Shown in pieces: positions 1,886-44,876 of a DNA stretch of 47,173 nucleotides (position 1 is the first letter of the stretch; every line of letters begins with the position of its first letter). The position numbers and the translations under genes are program-made. The stretch is from Patescibacteria group bacterium (GTDB lineage Bacteria > Patescibacteriota > Patescibacteriia > PEXW01). The notes under the pieces are model-generated. The model was not told where the DNA came from, did not search any database, and saw only the letters and a list, made by a program, of their open reading frames with translations. The stretch spans positions 114,122-161,294 of the forward strand of contig JBAYJA010000004.1 of the NCBI GenBank assembly GCA_041665345.1, in the 5' to 3' direction.

Positions 1886-1914
1886 ATGACAGAATTCCCT
1901 TTGTGTCGTACAAT
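1886..1914 (+). promoter_or_regulatory. promoter placed for a leaderless recombinase transcript
   Basis: ATGACA (1886-1891), 17 nt, TACAAT (1909-1914), then 7 nt to the ATG at 1922. No Shine-Dalgarno. Confidence 0.45.
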
Positions 1915-1921
1915 ATCAGAC

Positions 1922-2866
1922 ATGGCCGTCCCCATAAAAAAACTCCTTACTGACTTCCTGGAGTATTTGGAAGTGGAGAAGAATGTCTCACCGCTTACCG
2001 TGCGGAACTACGGCTTCTACCTCAAACGATTTGTAGATTCAGCCAAGCTGGAAAAACCCACCGATGTCACTATCGAAAAAGTGCGGCAGTTCCGGCTTTT
2101 CCTCAACCGCCAGCTGAACCACCAAAAAGAAGTATTGAAAGCCAGTACTCGGAATTATCACTTGATTGCGCTGCGCGCATTTTTGAAGTACCTGGCCAAA
2201 CGGGATGTCCCCAGTCTGGCTGCAGAGAAAGTGGAGCTTGCCAAGCAGACCGAGCGGCAGGTGAGCTTTTTGGAAGGGACGGACTTGGAGCGATTCTTGG
2301 AAGCACCGTTGAAATTGGAACAGCCGGATTTGCTGAAGGCCCGGGACAAGGCGATTCTGGAACTCCTCTTCTCCACTGGCTTGCGCGTTTCAGAACTGGC
2401 GAATCTAAAGAAGGATGGGATCAATTTGGAGAAAGACGAGTTTACGGTTCGCGGCAAAGGCGGGAAGCTCCGCATTGTCTTCCTCTCCCACAATGCCCGG
2501 CACTGGGTAGGCGCATATTTGAAAGCCCGGAATGATGACGAGCCGTGGATTTTCCTACGGCATGACCGCGCCATCAAACGCTCCGGCGCAGAACACAAAC
2601 CCTTGACCTCCCGATCCATTCAACGGTTGGTGCAGCACTACGCCACCGTGGCCGGCATTACCAAACGAATTACCCCGCACACGCTCCGGCACTCCTACGC
2701 CACCGACCTGCTCATGAATGGGGCGGACATTCGGAGTGTGCAATCCATGCTGGGACACGCCAGCATTACGACCACGCAAATTTACACCCACGTCACCAAC
2801 CAGCAGCTCCGCGAAGTGTACCAGGCCTACCACGGCCGGCGCCGGAAGAAAGACTCGTCCAAATAA
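1922..2866 (+). CDS. tyrosine site-specific recombinase, XerC/XerD-like
   Basis: C-terminal HTLRHSYATDLLMNGADIRSVQSMLGHASITTTQIYTHV (R-H-R-Y catalytic signature region). N-terminal SAM-like LTDFLEYLEVEKNVSPLTVRNY. Start chosen at MAVPIKK (1922) rather than 1886. Confidence 0.85.
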   Translation: MAVPIKKLLTDFLEYLEVEKNVSPLTVRNYGFYLKRFVDSAKLEKPTDVTIEKVRQFRLFLNRQLNHQKEVLKASTRNYHLIALRAFLKYLAKRDVPSLAAEKVELAKQTERQVSFLEGTDLERFLEAPLKLEQPDLLKARDKAILELLFSTGLRVSELANLKKDGINLEKDEFTVRGKGGKLRIVFLSHNARHWVGAYLKARNDDEPWIFLRHDRAIKRSGAEHKPLTSRSIQRLVQHYATVAGITKRITPHTLRHSYATDLLMNGADIRSVQSMLGHASITTTQIYTHVTNQQLREVYQAYHGRRRKKDSSK

Positions 2867-3980: not shown

Positions 3981-4009
3981 TTGACGTGCAGAGCAATCCA
4001 ACGTAGTAT
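3981..4009 (+). promoter_or_regulatory. sigma70-like promoter driving the tRNA-Arg / tRNA-derived array
   Basis: TTGACG (3981-3986), 17 nt, TAGTAT (4004-4009). The first tRNA-like unit starts at 4019. Confidence 0.55.
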
Positions 4010-4018
4010 GAGCAACTT

Positions 4019-4398
4019 GCCCCGGTAGTTCAACCCCGACGTTTGCGCAGCGCAAAGTCGGGGCTCCGACGCCAAAGGCCGTCGGAGCGGATAGAACCGT
4101 GGACTTCCCCGCCCGACTCGCCTGACGCCCTTGTAGTTTCCGGCGGAGCCGGATCCCCCGCCTCCCGAAGCCGTGCGGCGGGCAGGCGCTTCTGCGGGAC
4201 AATAGAGAAACCACGGACTTCCCCGCTTGCCTTGTTCGCCCCTGTAGCTCAACGGATCAGAGCAAGGGACTTCTAAGCCCGAGATGCACGTTCGATTCGT
4301 GCCAGGGGCACCAAGGCAAGCGGGGCAGGTAAGCCGGTTGTTGGGTTTCCGGCGTAGCCGGACCCCGCTACGCGGGGCAATTCCCTCCCGGGGCACCA
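4019..4398 (+). ncRNA. GC-rich structured array of tRNA-derived units (~110-nt period) enclosing one intact tRNA
   Basis: tRNA 5' starts recur at 4019 (GCCCCGGTAGTTCAAC), 4127 (GCCCTTGTAGTTTC) and 4238 (GCCCCTGTAGCTCAAC). The spacer ATAGA..GGACTTCCCCGC recurs at 4091-4112 and 4202-4226. Positions 4019-4025 pair perfectly with 4388-4394, followed by ACCA. No credible ORF. Confidence 0.6.
4238..4313 (+). tRNA. tRNA-Arg (anticodon TCT), CCA encoded
   Basis: 7-bp acceptor GCCCCTG/CAGGGGC. D arm GCTC-AACGGATCA-GAGC. Anticodon loop CTTCTAA. T arm GCACG-TTCGATT-CGTGC. Discriminator A plus CCA. The anticodon stem has only 3 G-C pairs, flanked by two A-G mismatches. Confidence 0.8.
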
Positions 4399-4413
4399 CC
4401 TATTCTGGACGAG

Positions 4414-4431
4414 TTCTGAAGGTGTACCTAA
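4414..4431 (+). repeat. left direct repeat bounding the AT-richer cassette
   Basis: TTCTGAAGGTGTACCTAA. Its partner at 7174-7192 is TTCTGAAAGGTATACCTAA (one indel, one substitution). Confidence 0.75.
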
Positions 4432-4471
4432 TATTGTATGTTTGTCTAAAGACCTAACACTAAATAGAAAA

Positions 4472-5542
4472 ATGGGAATTCAAGCACATAAAAAAACTCT
4501 CCCTTTGTTGACCGGGAATCTAGACGGCCTCAATCACTCGAAGTTACCGATACAAAATTGGGAATTTGTAGAAGCACGGTCATCTATCCGCGCTGCGCTT
4601 CGGTTCTTATTAGGAAAGCAACGATCGGACGGATCATGGCGCGATTTTAACGTCTTATTTGGTGAATCTTCTTCTTGGGTCACTGCATGTGTTCTCATCT
4701 CGCTTAGCGACACTCCTTCGTATGTACCTCGGGCTGACTTAGCCGGCGTTAAGGCCAAAGCACTTCAATTTCTTCGTTCGAGCTGCAAACCAACAGGCGG
4801 TTGGGGCTATAATGAAAATCCGATTGTTCCAGATGATTGTGATTCTACTGCCCATGCGATTCTCGCGTTCCGAATGAATGATCAGATGGTACCAAATCGT
4901 AACATAAGACGACTTGAGGAATTTGAGATCGAACCCGGTCATTTTGTCACATTCCTTAATCGAAAGGAAGGCCATTCTTGGGGTTTAACACATTCCGAAG
5001 TTGGGGCTATTGCAACAATCGCATTAGGTGGGTCTTCACGAGTTAGGGGACTGGCTGAGAAACTTGAATATGATCTGGACAGATTTGGCTCCTGGCCCAG
5101 TTTTTGGTGGCGCAAACCACTATATTCGACATATGCATGTTCTTGGTTCCTTTCGCATTTTGGAATTTGTTGTAGGTCTTTATCAGATCGTAGCGAGCAG
5201 TTGGCAGATACGCTGAGCAGTAGATCACCCTTGGAAGCAGCATTCTCAGGGCTTGCGGCGTATCAACTTGGCCATCACCAATTCGTGAAGAAAGCCTTTC
5301 GATACCTTATACGCAATCAGAAATCGGACGGATCTTGGGAATCATCAAGGCTCTTGCGTAATACCGATTCAGATCAAACTTCGAATTGGCTAAACACCGG
5401 TAAGGTTCGAGGCAAGTTGTATCACGATCAAAATAAAGTTTTTACAACATCTACAATCACACGATTTCTTATGACTGTAATCACCGAAGTACAACCATGT
5501 GACTATTCGATGTCGGCCTTTGAAGCTCATAATGTTCTATAA
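4472..5542 (+). CDS. prenyltransferase / squalene-cyclase-repeat protein (class II terpene cyclase-like, single alpha/alpha barrel)
   Basis: QW-type repeats QRSDGSW and QKSDGSW. GGWGYN followed by PDDCDSTA in the position of the GGW...DxDDTA motif. The ATG at 4472 is preferred over the TTG at 4442. Confidence 0.7.
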   Translation: MGIQAHKKTLPLLTGNLDGLNHSKLPIQNWEFVEARSSIRAALRFLLGKQRSDGSWRDFNVLFGESSSWVTACVLISLSDTPSYVPRADLAGVKAKALQFLRSSCKPTGGWGYNENPIVPDDCDSTAHAILAFRMNDQMVPNRNIRRLEEFEIEPGHFVTFLNRKEGHSWGLTHSEVGAIATIALGGSSRVRGLAEKLEYDLDRFGSWPSFWWRKPLYSTYACSWFLSHFGICCRSLSDRSEQLADTLSSRSPLEAAFSGLAAYQLGHHQFVKKAFRYLIRNQKSDGSWESSRLLRNTDSDQTSNWLNTGKVRGKLYHDQNKVFTTSTITRFLMTVITEVQPCDYSMSAFEAHNVL

Positions 5543-5553
5543 ACTTCTATAGT

Positions 5554-6588
5554 TCATTGATAGCCTGCAGCAATGAACTCATTCTGATCCCAGCAAGCTC
5601 GCTGCCGAATCCACTCGCAAAAAGCCCTGAGTTGCTCGCGTGTGCTGCCCGGCGAGAATTCAGCAAGCAGCCTCAAAGTCAACTCGAATTGTTTTTCAGC
5701 TCTCTGAAGCGCTGTTACCTGAACTTTCAATTCTCTCAATAATTGAGCAATCTGCCCTCCCGTCTTGGAGTCACACGTCTTTCCAATCGCGCCCAAAACT
5801 AGACTTCGCTCTGACGTGCTCGCTGAATCCAAAGCCACAGCGATCGGCAGGCTGAGATTTACCACATAGGAACTAGGCGCTTTTCGTCGCACCGAACTTT
5901 CCCCAGATTCATCGTATACATCATTATACATCTGATACGTCTTGCCAATTTCATTACCCAATGTCGCATAGCGAGTTACTGAATCACTATCGAAGCGCTG
6001 TAGACGAGCTGCGGCTATAAAGACAAAACGAAATAACGCGGATGTCTTCTGAAGTACCACTGACTCATAGAGTTCGACATATGATCCTCGAGGGGAAACA
6101 TACCCAACGTCGGCAAGTTCTCCAGTTGACATGCGGCGTATGGCGTGTCCGAACTCTGCGGCTAGATCTAATTTGTGGCTCTTATCTACTTTGTGCAGCC
6201 GAAGTATCGACTCTCCCAACAAGAGGGGAATGAGCAAGTTCGTTGCTTTGTTACCGTGCTGTTGGTGAAAGGTCTGATGCCCACGTCGGATGACATCCTC
6301 GTCAATTAAATCATCGAGAATGATTGATCCACGATGACACAATTCGATCACGGTCGCCAATTCTCCTGCTATCAGGTCATTTGACACGGTGTTCTTCTCA
6401 AGAAGCAGCATAAAGGTAAGTGGGCGCAATCTCCTGCCGGGGAAAAGAGCATCTCGCAGCAGTCCACGAAGCACAGAATCGCTTGTCGCCATAACGAAGT
6501 GATTCAAATTCTCATCAACTAACGATTGCACCTGACGGCGCGTCGAACGAGATAGAAACGAATCTATAGTGAGCTGCGGTTGGGACAT
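5554..6588 (-). CDS. polyprenyl (isoprenyl) diphosphate synthase-like protein
   Basis: GRRLRP, first Asp-rich motif ILDDLIDEDVIRRG, KTSALF, and second motif GKTYQMYNDVYD (N replaces the first Asp). Convergent with the cyclase-like gene, with an 11-nt gap. Confidence 0.8.
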   Translation of the reverse strand: MSQPQLTIDSFLSRSTRRQVQSLVDENLNHFVMATSDSVLRGLLRDALFPGRRLRPLTFMLLLEKNTVSNDLIAGELATVIELCHRGSIILDDLIDEDVIRRGHQTFHQQHGNKATNLLIPLLLGESILRLHKVDKSHKLDLAAEFGHAIRRMSTGELADVGYVSPRGSYVELYESVVLQKTSALFRFVFIAAARLQRFDSDSVTRYATLGNEIGKTYQMYNDVYDESGESSVRRKAPSSYVVNLSLPIAVALDSASTSERSLVLGAIGKTCDSKTGGQIAQLLRELKVQVTALQRAEKQFELTLRLLAEFSPGSTREQLRAFCEWIRQRACWDQNEFIAAGYQ

Positions 6589-6842
6589 ATTACAATACTA
6601 CCCCTTTGTCGTTAGCTGGCACAAGGACAAACCCCATCTGCATGTGGCTTCAGTAACTTACTGTGCCACAACCGCTCAGACAAGTGTACAGAGCCTCTAC
6701 GCTCCTTCCCAATTTTCCTTCCCCCAGAAACACCAGCTTCTTTATTTTTTTGCAGAAGCTCTTTGAACGTGAGTATGCCAGGATTATTCTGGTAGAAGGT
6801 TCAAACGTCGTGTATCAGGGCGCACCACCACAATAAAGCCTC

Positions 6843-6871
6843 TTGACGATATATCGTATATGATATATAGT
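6843..6871 (+). promoter_or_regulatory. promoter with overlapping palindrome (possible XRE operator)
   Basis: TTGACG (6843-6848), 17 nt, TATAGT (6866-6871). The perfect 10-bp palindrome CGATATATCG (6847-6856) overlaps the -35/spacer. Confidence 0.45.
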
Positions 6872-6892
6872 AGTTGTTGCGTAGACTATTTT

Positions 6893-7159
6893 ATGAATAA
6901 GAATAACTATCTCTACAAATTGCAAAAAAATAAGGAGTATAAGAAACTTCTTAAAGAAGAGAAGGATCTACTTGATATTGCTTTGCAGATTTCCCAAACA
7001 CGAAGGAAGCGTAAAATTACTCAGGTGCAATTGGCAAAAAGAGCTGGCATGCCCCAAAGTCAAATTGCAAGAATTGAAAGTGGGAATCATAACGTGACTA
7101 TCGGGACTCTAAATAGGGTTGCGGGTGCATTGAACTTACGAGTGGTTGTTGGAGAGTAG
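6893..7159 (+). CDS. XRE-family helix-turn-helix transcriptional regulator (88 aa)
   Basis: ITQVQLAKRAGMPQSQIARIESGNHNVTIGTLNRVAGAL is a classic HTH_3/Cro-C1 motif. Start moved to the ATG at 6893, because 6860 lies inside the promoter. Confidence 0.8.
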   Translation: MNKNNYLYKLQKNKEYKKLLKEEKDLLDIALQISQTRRKRKITQVQLAKRAGMPQSQIARIESGNHNVTIGTLNRVAGALNLRVVVGE

Positions 7160-7173
7160 TACGCTGGCATTCA

Positions 7174-7192
7174 TTCTGAAAGGTATACCTAA
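7174..7192 (+). repeat. right direct repeat bounding the AT-richer cassette
   Basis: TTCTGAAAGGTATACCTAA, 15 nt after the XRE stop. Partner of 4414-4431. Confidence 0.75.
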
Positions 7193-7371
7193 ACTTCCTC
7201 TACTTACTTTGAGGAATTTTACGTATTCACAGATTGAACGCAAAAAAACAAAGGTATGTTATGATTTCCAAAAATCAGCTTTTTTAGTCAGCCTTGACAA
7301 CGTTACCAATTTGGTATAAGTTCGTATTTGGACATACACAGACACTCACATTACAACCCAAGGAGGAAATT

Positions 7372-7662
7372 ATGTGCGGTGGATATCCTTACCCGCACCC
7401 GGCAGGACACGTCATTGCGCAGCTGGTATCTGGGCAAGAAGTGAAAGTTGCCAAAGGCTTTGGCTTTCCGAAAAAGCAAGAAGATTCGACCTGCATTATT
7501 GCACGCGTCGTTGGCTACTCTGCGCTTTGCGCTGATGGCACGCTGCTAGGTTGCATGGATGGCGCAGGCGTCACACCCACAGACGTCATCCACCAAACTT
7601 TTGAACTGAGCGATGCAGCCAAACAGAAAATCGCCGAGGTTGACGCAGAAAAACAAACCTAA
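7372..7662 (+). CDS. hypothetical small Cys-containing protein (96 aa)
   Basis: AAGGAGG 5 nt before the ATG at 7372. Possible promoter TTGACA (7294-7299) with TGgTATAAG (7312-7320). A terminator follows. Confidence 0.6.
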   Translation: MCGGYPYPHPAGHVIAQLVSGQEVKVAKGFGFPKKQEDSTCIIARVVGYSALCADGTLLGCMDGAGVTPTDVIHQTFELSDAAKQKIAEVDAEKQT

Positions 7663-8882: not shown

Positions 8883-9536
8883 ATGAAGAGCAAGCAAATC
8901 ATCACCAACGTCGCAAACCTCGTCCGCAAAAAGTTTGAGGGTGAGGGTTCAGGCCATGACTGGTGGCACATTCTCCGGGTTTGGAACATGGCCAAACATC
9001 TGAACCAGGAAGAACGGGCTGATGCTTTTGTGGTGGAACTTTCGGCGCTCTTGCACGACATTGCAGATTGGAAATTCCACGACCGAGACGAATCGGTTGG
9101 GCCACGGGTAGCGCGGGAGATACTTACAAAGCAAGGGGTACAAGCCGCAACAATTGATCACGTGTGTGATATTGTGGCGAACATCTCCTACAAAGGCGCA
9201 GGTGTGCAAAATGGCATCAGTACTTTGGAAGGCAAAATTGTCCAGGATGCTGACCGTTTAGATGCCCTTGGCGCGATTGGCATTGGACGCACATTTGCAT
9301 ACGGCGGGCATGTGGGGCACGCCATGTACAATCCAGAAGAAAAACCTGTACTGCACCAAACCAAAGAAGCATACAGCAAAAGTACAGCCTCAACGGTCGG
9401 CCACTTCTACGAAAAACTCTTACTCCTCAAAGATCGGATGAATACGAAGACCGCGAAACAGTTGGCGAAAGACCGACACAAGTTCATGGAAACCTTCTTG
9501 GCGGAGTTTTATAAGGAGTGGGAGGGGGAGCTATAA
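8883..9536 (+). CDS. HD-domain metal-dependent phosphohydrolase
   Basis: HDWWHILRV, LLHDIADWKF and QDADRLDALGAIGIGR. Start moved to MKSKQII at 8883. Confidence 0.85.
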   Translation: MKSKQIITNVANLVRKKFEGEGSGHDWWHILRVWNMAKHLNQEERADAFVVELSALLHDIADWKFHDRDESVGPRVAREILTKQGVQAATIDHVCDIVANISYKGAGVQNGISTLEGKIVQDADRLDALGAIGIGRTFAYGGHVGHAMYNPEEKPVLHQTKEAYSKSTASTVGHFYEKLLLLKDRMNTKTAKQLAKDRHKFMETFLAEFYKEWEGEL

Positions 9537-10339: not shown

Positions 10340-10367
10340 AAAAAAGCCGAGTTGTGTAAACTCGGCT
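10340..10367 (-). terminator. rho-independent terminator (copy 1 of a 28-nt repeat)
   Basis: The minus strand reads AGCCGAGTTTACACAACTCGGCTTTTTT. Identical apart from 1 nt to 10965-10992. Confidence 0.7.
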
Positions 10368-10964: not shown

Positions 10965-10992
10965 AAAAAAGCCGAGTTGTGTAAACTCAGCT
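10965..10992 (-). terminator. rho-independent terminator (copy 2 of the 28-nt repeat)
   Basis: Same sequence as 10340-10367, with G to A at one stem position. Confidence 0.65.
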
Positions 10993-30629: not shown

Positions 30630-30656
30630 AAAAAGCCCGCAACGTGATGTTGCGGG
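30630..30656 (-). terminator. rho-independent terminator (copy 1 of a 27-nt repeat)
   Basis: Minus strand stem GCCCGCAAC / GTTGCGGGC plus a T-run. Identical 27-mer at 31264-31290. Confidence 0.7.
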
Positions 30657-31263: not shown

Positions 31264-31290
31264 AAAAAGCCCGCAACGTGATGTTGCGGG
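31264..31290 (-). terminator. rho-independent terminator (copy 2 of the 27-nt repeat)
   Basis: AAAAAGCCCGCAACGTGATGTTGCGGG is identical to 30630-30656. Confidence 0.7.
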
Positions 31291-43788: not shown

Positions 43789-43803
43789 AAAAACTATTAT
43801 TTC

Positions 43804-43828
43804 GATTGGTGCACGGGGGTGGCCAATG
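43804..43828. repeat. 25-nt duplicate of the tRNA-His 3' end plus trailer
   Basis: GATTGGTGCACGGGGGTGGCCAATG is identical to 44790-44814. Confidence 0.85.
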
Positions 43829-43895: not shown

Positions 43896-44121
43896 CACTT
43901 TTTACCTCGCACATTCAGCCATACGCGCACTTGACATGCGTCATTAGGTGTTGTAAGGTGTGCGGTTATTAAGAACCTTGAAAAATCGTTAGCATTTGTC
44001 TGCTATCAAGAATAGGAATGGCTCAGCCCAGCACCTTTGCGCTAACTACCATAGAGAAAATTACACCTTGTTATCACCATAAACCCAGATCATCCACGAT
44101 GTGGAGGAACGGAGTGTTTGT

Positions 44122-44628
44122 ATGCGAGGCTATGTGCGCATCGCAGTAGTCGTCATGGTGGCTCTGACCATCGTCTTTTTATCATCCTTGCCGGCGGCAG
44201 CAACTCATTTGACCGAGGCGCAACTCATGGCAGAACCACTCGATACCGGGATGGTTATCCAGTTCGACCAGGTGGAAATGGTTCGATTTGAACCACGCAT
44301 CTGGTCAGACAGAAGCATTGGTGTCGTTTTTCTCTACACCGATTCAACCACCGAGGACGGAAAGAAAGTTCGCAATGTTTATCGGTATGATATCGATGAC
44401 ACATCGACGGTGTGGGTGATATTTAATATGGATGACAACGAGGTGGGTGATAATACTGCCTCTGTTGGTCTCCATGACGTGAACCGCCCCAATGAGGCTT
44501 TCGGACGGAGATCCTCCCCCGAAAAGAGGCTCGTACCAACCCTCTACATTAATTTAACAGATGTAGAAAGGGCAATAAGTCTCTTTCAGAAGTTGCCGGG
44601 AGTATTTTTACTTAATTTTAGCGACTAG
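44122..44628 (+). CDS. hypothetical signal-anchored protein (168 aa)
   Basis: ATG at 44122 (MRGYVRIAVVVMVALTIVFLSSLPAAA). The only gene between the two 25-nt repeats. Confidence 0.55.
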   Translation: MRGYVRIAVVVMVALTIVFLSSLPAAATHLTEAQLMAEPLDTGMVIQFDQVEMVRFEPRIWSDRSIGVVFLYTDSTTEDGKKVRNVYRYDIDDTSTVWVIFNMDDNEVGDNTASVGLHDVNRPNEAFGRRSSPEKRLVPTLYINLTDVERAISLFQKLPGVFLLNFSD

Positions 44629-44690: not shown

Positions 44691-44789
44691 ACACCAAAAA
44701 ACTCTACCTTTTTTTGGCAGCCGTCCTCGCCCTTCGAGTCCCACATACTTTACTCCAATGACGCACCTAATGCCTGAAAAAGAGTTTTT

Positions 44790-44814
44790 GATTGGTGCAC
44801 GGGGGTGGCCAATG
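44790..44814. repeat. 25-nt repeat copy overlapping the tRNA-His 3' end
   Basis: Covers the last 11 nt of the tRNA (44804-44814) plus 14 nt of trailer. Confidence 0.85.
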
Positions 44815-44876
44815 GGACTCGAACCCACAACCACTGGTACCACAAACCAGTGCTCTACCATTGAGCTATGGCCACC
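44804..44876 (-). tRNA. tRNA-His (anticodon GTG) with encoded G-1
   Basis: The reverse complement reads G-GTGGCCA-TA-GCTC..GAGC, anticodon arm CTGGT-TTGTGGT-ACCAG, T arm GTGGG-TTCGAGT-CCCAT, then TGGCCAC-C. The 3' flank reads CCC, so CCA is not fully encoded. Confidence 0.9.

Follow-up and report, generated by a model that had tools for sequence, protein, structure and literature searches.

A divergent terpene cyclase and polyprenyl-synthase-like gene pair, probably acquired horizontally, beside a tRNA-Arg locus in a Patescibacteria genome

Do the three genes that follow a tRNA-Arg locus in a small bacterial genome form a mobile cassette, and what would such a cassette bring to its host? We addressed this question in a stretch of 47,173 nucleotides (nt) from a Patescibacteria genome (contig JBAYJA010000004.1), henceforth referred to as the window. 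The window corresponds to the final 47 kb of a 1,075,605-bp metagenomic contig (ERZ27249449 k141_1145919), and its DNA recurs at 100% identity in one Joint Genome Institute (JGI) assembly and two Logan assemblies. The host genome is roughly 1.07 Mb. Protein matches to the metallophosphoesterase that flanks the locus come mostly from Patescibacteria, and the host is therefore a bacterium of the Candidate Phyla Radiation (CPR). A preliminary description of this DNA proposed that the genes between two 18/19-nt direct repeats, at 4414-4431 and 7174-7192, are a cassette that lacks its own recombinase and was inserted just 3' of the tRNA. Our reading, to which we assign a probability of about 0.6, is that the block at 4399-7371, in a variable region 3' of tRNA-Arg, entered the genome horizontally as a terpenoid cassette that comprises two enzymes and a regulator of its own.

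The gene content between the two repeat copies is as first described: a cyclase-like gene on the plus strand, a convergent polyprenyl-synthase-like gene on the minus strand and an XRE gene on the plus strand. The first of these (4472-5542, plus strand) encodes a 356-amino-acid (aa) monodomain, or beta-only, class II terpene cyclase of the MstE type. It matches squalene-hopene-cyclase domains of Pfam weakly (SQHop_cyclase_C), and a sequence search of the Protein Data Bank (PDB) clearly retrieved 6ij1 (E 5e-15), 8pak and MstE (6sbb). We built an AlphaFold2 model from 18 homologs, with a mean predicted local distance difference test (pLDDT) of 86.8 and a predicted template modeling score (pTM) of 0.87. 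When this model was compared to known structures with Foldseek, the top matches were 8pak, 8paj, 6sbb and 6ij1 (TM 0.70-0.74), with drimenyl-diphosphate synthases and squalene-hopene cyclase well behind the monodomain enzymes. The protein is thus modeled as a single beta-type alpha/alpha barrel of ~350 aa of the MstE clade. Its acid motif is D122-C-D124 within PDDCDST (GGWGYNENPIVPDDCDST), which aligns with PEDADST and PADADST of 6ij1 and 8pak, and both D122 and D124 are invariant in the 18-sequence family alignment. A DxD instead of a DxDD acid motif is a described hallmark of the MstE clade (PMC12414744). That survey, published in 2025, lists many phyla, and the word Patescibacteria is absent from its text (PMC12414744).

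The cyclase is rare. We detected 20 homologs among 5.8 billion proteins, the nearest with 47% identity, so that the family comprises 21 proteins. The more distant homologs include one in a LanM lanthipeptide cluster and one in an operon of unknown proteins. At the former locus (L033, 266-8316), a cyclase homolog with 34% identity lies between a LanM-type lanthipeptide synthetase gene and genes for a MacB/FtsX and C39-peptidase ABC transporter. Given this homolog beside lanthipeptide genes, some members of the family may serve peptide natural-product clusters instead of terpenoid ones.

The second gene (5554-6588, minus strand) is separated from the convergent cyclase gene by an 11-nt gap and encodes a divergent trans-polyprenyl-synthase-like enzyme of 344 aa. 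It matches the Pfam family polyprenyl_synt with 97.7 bits (cut-off 27) and has matches in the PDB, and none of its NCBIfam matches comes close to the equivalog cut-offs. Residues 92-96 (DDLID) form the first Asp-rich motif, in which D92, D93 and D96 are invariant in the subfamily alignment. The second is NDVYD (residues 222-226, N222-D223-V-Y-D226). The ND is kept in 20 out of 20 subfamily members, whereas canonical members of the same alignment have DD. The protein ends in a CWDQ...AGY tail that is conserved within the subfamily as CWDQxE..AGY and is missing from the octaprenyl and solanesyl synthases in this alignment. The subfamily includes 24 cluster representatives at E ≤ 1e-30 among 1.84 billion, with the nearest at 42% identity. 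This NDxxD subfamily of ~24 clusters (proteins P0145-P0166) appears to be uncharacterized.

The third gene (6893-7159, plus strand) encodes a small XRE/Cro-type helix-turn-helix (HTH) regulator, 88 aa long as called in public assemblies, which is supported by Pfam HTH_3 and by NCBIfam and PADLOC HTH matches. The promoter and palindrome attributed to this gene are both present. A sigma-70-like promoter (TTGACG-17-TATAGT, 6843-6871, plus strand) lies upstream of it and overlaps AT-rich palindromes (ACGATATATCGT), within a 304-nt divergent region common to the synthase and XRE genes. Pfam searches of the three genes and of the spare open reading frames (ORFs) of the cassette revealed no recombinase or transposase domain, in agreement with the absence of an integrase or transposase noted earlier; the spare ORFs did not match any Pfam family. 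Neither the cyclase nor the synthase matched a PADLOC defense-system model. Scans of viral contigs for either enzyme and for the repeat pattern returned no relatives, and BLAST searches against plasmids and phages returned one distant match on a Deinococcus plasmid and nothing further.

We assessed whether the composition of the block sets it apart. Its G+C content is 44.9%, compared with 50.9 ± 2.9% in same-size windows (2.05 standard deviations (SD) low) and 52-55% in the upstream genes. Its dinucleotide signature distance is 105 compared with 56 ± 21 (~2.3 SD), the second highest in the window. The G+C content at third codon positions (GC3) is 0.37 for the cyclase, 0.48 for the synthase and 0.37 for the XRE gene, against 0.557 ± 0.088; the cyclase and XRE values are two of the three lowest among the 52 ORFs of the window. 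The codon-usage fit of the trio is among the poorest in the window and is the worst among ORFs that are also called as genes publicly. The contrast in the preliminary description (25-50% inside versus 57-60% in flanking genes) was correct in its direction, the cassette being AT-richer by 6-9 points, and overstated in its size. Overall, the trio looks foreign, as a block of deviant composition that follows the tRNA-Arg locus directly on its 3' side.

Genomic context was examined in relatives of the two enzymes and of the flanking genes. The closest cyclase homolog (P0002, loci L030/L031) is encoded directly after genes for a Prim-Pol/PriCT primase and an HTH_17 excisionase-type protein, with CRISPR-Cas further upstream. 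A synthase homolog lies convergent to it, 3.7 kb downstream (39% identity over the C-terminal 101 residues). As judged from these matches, the cyclase/synthase pair is linked elsewhere too, beside hallmark genes of integrative elements.

On the left flank, a search of genome contigs with the metallophosphoesterase returned 22 loci, and in the 18 of these that were scanned, none had a tRNA just downstream of the metallophosphoesterase gene. Four loci serve for comparison. The one with the most similar metallophosphoesterase (L008, 88% identity) keeps the order Xer then metallophosphoesterase, and its contig ends inside the latter gene. Another, from the same sample (L037, 56%), keeps PNPase, NYN, S15, Xer, metallophosphoesterase and a plain 74-nt tRNA-Arg(TCT); past the tRNA-Arg it encodes an unrelated 94-aa protein, a GIDE-domain protein and tRNA-His. 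A third (L038, 59%) has Xer, metallophosphoesterase and the same elaborate tRNA-like array as the window (described below), and its contig ends inside the array. The fourth (L039, 64%) has no tRNA after the metallophosphoesterase gene. From gene order and protein identity, synteny with L037 is kept up to tRNA-Arg and lost immediately after it. On the right flank, a 96-aa protein has a single relative (69%), whose upstream neighbor is a DUF1801 gene, and homology stops at the promoter. Taken together, the low G+C content, the rarity of the enzymes, the occurrence of the homologous pair beside a primase/excisionase-type module and the synteny break in L037 make horizontal acquisition 3' of tRNA-Arg likely.

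Whether the repeats mark the ends of the acquired block is a separate question. The left copy (TTCTGAAGGTGTACCTAA, 4414-4431, plus strand) includes a near-palindrome, AGGTGTACCT, and is followed 41 nt later by the cyclase ATG. It starts about 15-16 nt past the ACCA that closes the tRNA-like array; counted exactly, it begins at the 16th nt past the ACCA ending at 4398, which is the offset first given. The right copy (TTCTGAAAGGTATACCTAA, 7174-7192, plus strand) has a perfect palindrome of 10 nt (AGGTATACCT) and begins 15 nt past the XRE stop codon. The repeat coordinates and the alignment reported earlier are exact: the two copies agree at 17 positions and differ by a 1-nt indel and a G/A change, and the longest exact block is 7 nt. 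No further copy was found in the window, even with three errors allowed. The pattern is not a dispersed repeat, since beyond the two copies in the window we found four matches in viral contigs, every one within a long ORF.

The preliminary description considered such a match very unlikely by chance in 47 kb, and this is wrong. We enumerated direct-repeat pairs with ≥17 matches, ≤1 mismatch and ≤1 indel of 1 nt. The window itself yielded 29 pairs at least as good as the 4414/7174 pair, and order-2 Markov sequences are expected to contain 18.4 ± 4.5 (7.0 ± 2.2 with a spacing of 0.5-10 kb). We then required both copies to lie in intergenic DNA, in separate segments ≤10 kb apart, and shuffled the sequence within every segment. 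This predicts 0.053 pairs per window, and three pairs were observed. Two of these are 27-28-nt terminator hairpin repeats, and the third is the 4414/7174 repeat, which is therefore mildly unusual within its intergenic ≤10 kb class only (p about 0.05). We regard this as suggestive, not compelling, and the proposal that the repeats are recombination junctions is not supported on statistics alone.

These counts bear first on the possibility that two AT-rich intergenic regions match by chance here, in which case the gene trio, acquired or ancestral, has no repeat-defined limits. The abundance of comparable pairs agrees with it, as do the short longest exact block, the absence of terminal inverted repeats just inside the two copies and of tRNA-derived sequence, and the fact that genuine repeats of the same genome are far stronger (27-29 nt, 96-100% identity). 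However, the expectation for intergenic pairs ≤10 kb apart is low, and the repeat pair brackets exactly the compositionally deviant three-gene block, coinciding with the limits of the most deviant trio and with the end of the tRNA locus. In addition, both copies share the 10-nt palindrome AGGT(G/A)TACCT, which has no third occurrence in the window (0.06 occurrences expected). A chance match is a real possibility, although we hold it at clearly less than even odds.

The shared palindrome raises a second possibility, namely that the repeat is a regulatory or protein-binding site built on AGGT(A/G)TACCT, such as an operator bound by the XRE protein or by a different dimeric regulator, and is not a recombination scar. 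One putative site would then lie upstream of the cyclase gene and one downstream of the XRE gene. Dimeric helix-turn-helix proteins typically bind sites with a palindromic core. A possible -10 element (TAATAT) 40 nt ahead of the start of the cyclase gene overlaps the left copy, and the genome reuses identical intergenic elements elsewhere, as the repeated terminator hairpins illustrate. However, the palindrome ACGATATATCGT at the promoter of the XRE gene itself is unrelated to the repeat, and the similarity between the copies is asymmetric, with TTCTGAA shared on just one side. The next promoter is ~100 nt downstream of the right copy, for which no target is obvious, and no promoter-like site was scored at the left copy. 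We consider a binding site improbable.

A third possibility, put forward in the preliminary description, is that the block is a recombinase-less mobile element, with the repeats as recombination sites at which the host Xer enzyme acts in trans, in the manner of integrative mobile elements exploiting Xer (IMEX). The absence of a recombinase inside the cassette is compatible with this, and a single Xer-type tyrosine recombinase gene (1886-2866, plus strand; XerC/D/A-like by Pfam and NCBIfam) lies 1.5 kb upstream. The palindrome confined to the repeats also fits, and the left copy does match the XerC arm of the Escherichia coli dif site at 8 of 11 positions. This arithmetic is right. Over the whole 28-nt E. 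coli dif, however, the best scores are 16/28 for the left copy and 13/28 for the right copy, values reached at 26 and 992 positions of the window, respectively, with the qualification that the dif of the host may differ. Neither copy has the 28-nt arm/spacer/arm architecture, and the indel between the copies falls inside the putative core. We found no dif-like conserved 22-mer in the window within three mismatches. The proposed prediction of dif from GC skew gave no sign change near 4-7 kb, in a skew that is weak throughout and covers only 47 kb of a 1.07-Mb contig.

The recombinase gene is also not demonstrably linked to the cassette. It lies next to the metallophosphoesterase gene in L008, L037 and L038 too, as expected of a resident chromosome-dimer resolvase. 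By its conserved gene neighborhood it would fit such an enzyme, and its position does not appear to single it out as the mobilizer of the cassette. The suggestions that it mobilized the block in trans and that integration was IMEX-like accordingly found no support, and we give Xer-mediated integration or excision of the block almost no credence. A broader version is very improbable as well. In it, true recombination at the repeats would let a minimal cassette without a recombinase move with the help of an enzyme supplied in trans, either the sole Xer-type protein of the genome or a helper element's integrase, and bring to a CPR bacterium a previously undescribed pair of an NDxxD synthase-like protein and a monodomain cyclase.

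In an empty site, the array would be followed directly by one repeat copy and the gene at 7372. No such site was found in relatives or in exact-pattern metagenome scans. The contigs retrieved by exact-protein look-up of the cassette genes are all 100% identical to the window, with no strain variation. A metagenome scan with the 3' end of the array gave 0 matches, and a scan with a conserved hairpin of the array gave three chance coding matches and one tRNA-Asp leader, with no relevant locus among them. Because no empty site was obtained, a repeat-bounded mobile cassette is unproven.

Several of these results weigh against horizontal acquisition of a defined terpenoid cassette. Neither an empty site nor a strain free of the cassette turned up among the contigs and relatives examined. 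A precise insertion cannot be demonstrated with the relatives that bear on the locus, which are too distant and share no synteny past the tRNA. No tRNA sequence occurs in the repeats, and matches of their quality are frequent window-wide. The shift in composition is only about 2 SD, the region at 10-13.3 kb is equally AT-rich (the sole other stretch that low), and the GC3 of the synthase gene is no different from that of the flanking 96-aa gene. Finally, the synthase-like enzyme lacks the canonical second DDxxD motif, and its chemistry is uncertain for this reason. With these points included, we retain the acquired two-enzyme cassette as the preferred reading. That the repeats are eroded junctions of its insertion we propose only tentatively, at somewhat less than even odds.

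If the preferred reading is correct, the cassette most likely arrived as cargo of an integrative element that later lost its integration module, and the 18/19-nt repeats may represent what erosion has left of the integration junctions. From its family and motifs, the polyprenyl-synthase-like enzyme would make or handle a polyprenyl diphosphate. By the same reasoning, the monodomain class II cyclase would protonate a terminal C=C bond via its DxD acid (D122/D124) and cyclize the chain. The XRE protein would control the divergent synthase/XRE promoter region.

The left neighbor of the cassette is itself unusual. It is a nested tRNA-like array (4020-4398, plus strand) that contains an intact tRNA-Arg(TCT) at 4238-4313, and it is the more surprising object of this region. 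A promoter-like site lies before the array, at 3981-4009. The array (window 4016-4402) is roughly 380 nt long, with a minimum free energy of -197.8 kcal/mol (z = -5.9). Its outer acceptor stem pairs GCCCCGG (4020) with CCGGGGC-ACCA (4388-4398), and the outer shell has two GC-rich hairpins inserted in the D-loop. A second tRNA-like 5' half occupies 4133-4230 and appears to resume past the insert at about 4331 (TAAGCCGGTTGT). The intact tRNA-Arg(TCT) is held between the strands of a 14-bp helix (CCCCGCTTGCCTTG / CAAGGCAAGCGGGG). It has A-G mismatches at both ends of the anticodon stem, which leaves only three Watson-Crick pairs, and its CCA is encoded. Neither Rfam nor ARAGORN recognized the outer shells, nor were they recognized as intron-containing tRNAs when ARAGORN was run with introns allowed.

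The array of L038 (3985-4209) shares ~90% identity with that of the window over the first ~100 nt, and the adjacent protein is only 59% identical. The two arrays show compensatory changes in the hairpin stems, and their units are nested in a different order. The counterpart in L037 is a plain tRNA-Arg; that locus also has a GC-rich, apparently structured non-coding stretch following its tRNA-His (9203-9400). The same hairpin pair occurs in the tRNA-Asp-like leader of L045 (about 7310-7400).

Other repeats of the window are stronger than the 4414/7174 pair. A 29-nt direct repeat (43800-43828 / 44786-44814, 28 of 29 positions identical, copies 986 nt apart) flanks an ORF at 44101-44628 and takes in the 3' end of tRNA-His (44801-44876, minus strand). 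GC-rich hairpins precede the distal copy on the minus strand. This repeat is either a classic tRNA 3'-end duplication, the scar of a small island, or a second nested array; as a textbook-style tRNA-type repeat, it is much more convincing than the 4414/7174 repeat. The terminator-like hairpin pairs mentioned above are 27-28 nt long and lie at 10340-10367 / 10965-10992 and at 30630-30656 / 31264-31290 (AAAAAAGCCGAGTTGTGTAAACTCGGCT, AAAAAGCCCGCAACGTGATGTTGCGGG). In each pair the copies are near-identical, about 630 nt apart and flank one gene, and the genes beside the copies are not paralogs.

Each component of the locus is known in kind: an MstE-type cyclase, a protein of the polyprenyl-synthase family, an XRE regulator and a small tRNA-adjacent island. 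What is noteworthy is their combination within a CPR genome, together with the NDxxD synthase subfamily. If the cassette is functional, a ~1-Mb bacterium of the CPR, a group noted for its minimal metabolism, would make a cyclic terpenoid with a rare two-enzyme set. The synthase-like partner comes from an uncharacterized subfamily in which the second metal-binding motif is altered, so the pair could define a small new route to terpenoids. As a mobile element, the locus would be one more small acquired tRNA-adjacent island with equivocal boundaries, and it adds little on the mechanism of mobilization.

We compared the locus to known systems, beginning with the mobile ones. IMEX elements, such as the CTX phage and the gonococcal genetic island, integrate at dif via the host XerCD. 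They are flanked by dif and a dif-like site, each composed of an 11-nt XerC arm, a 6-8-nt spacer and an 11-nt XerD arm, and the site lies at the replication terminus. The cassette resembles them in having no recombinase of its own in a genome that has a host Xer gene. It differs in that its ends carry no dif-like 28-nt site, no skew switch is detectable within the 47 kb, and its repeat is a short palindrome-containing 18/19-mer. Similarities also exist with tRNA-linked genomic islands, which integrate by means of an integrase and are bounded by attachment (att) repeats derived from the 3' end of the tRNA. Like these islands, the cassette lies directly 3' of a tRNA locus, has an atypical composition, combines accessory cargo with a small regulator and coincides with a synteny break at the tRNA. 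In contrast to them, it has no integrase, its repeats contain no tRNA sequence, and it is very small (2.8 kb); we also found no further copy of either tRNA-Arg 3' end in the window, including downstream of the cassette. Unlike a transposon or an insertion sequence, it has neither a transposase nor inverted repeats just inside the two copies, and an 18/19-nt duplication is longer than usual for transposon target sites.

At the level of the enzymes, the cyclase shares the single alpha/alpha-barrel of ~350 aa and the DxD acid motif with MstE, the merosterolic acid synthase of Scytonema, and with the other monodomain enzymes (6SBB, 8PAK, 8PAJ and 6IJ1). However, it is only 21-25% identical to them and belongs to a tiny subfamily of 21 proteins. 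Its host is a CPR bacterium. The cyclase gene is paired with one divergent polyprenyl-synthase-like gene, and neither an aromatic prenyltransferase gene nor any other meroterpenoid gene lies nearby. The synthase-like enzyme in turn shares the fold family and the first DDxxD motif with its flanking Arg residues with the canonical trans-isoprenyl diphosphate synthases (FPPS, GGPPS and OPPS; PF00348), whereas its subfamily has an NDxxD second motif throughout and carries a C-terminal CWDQxE..AGY extension that the canonical members lack.

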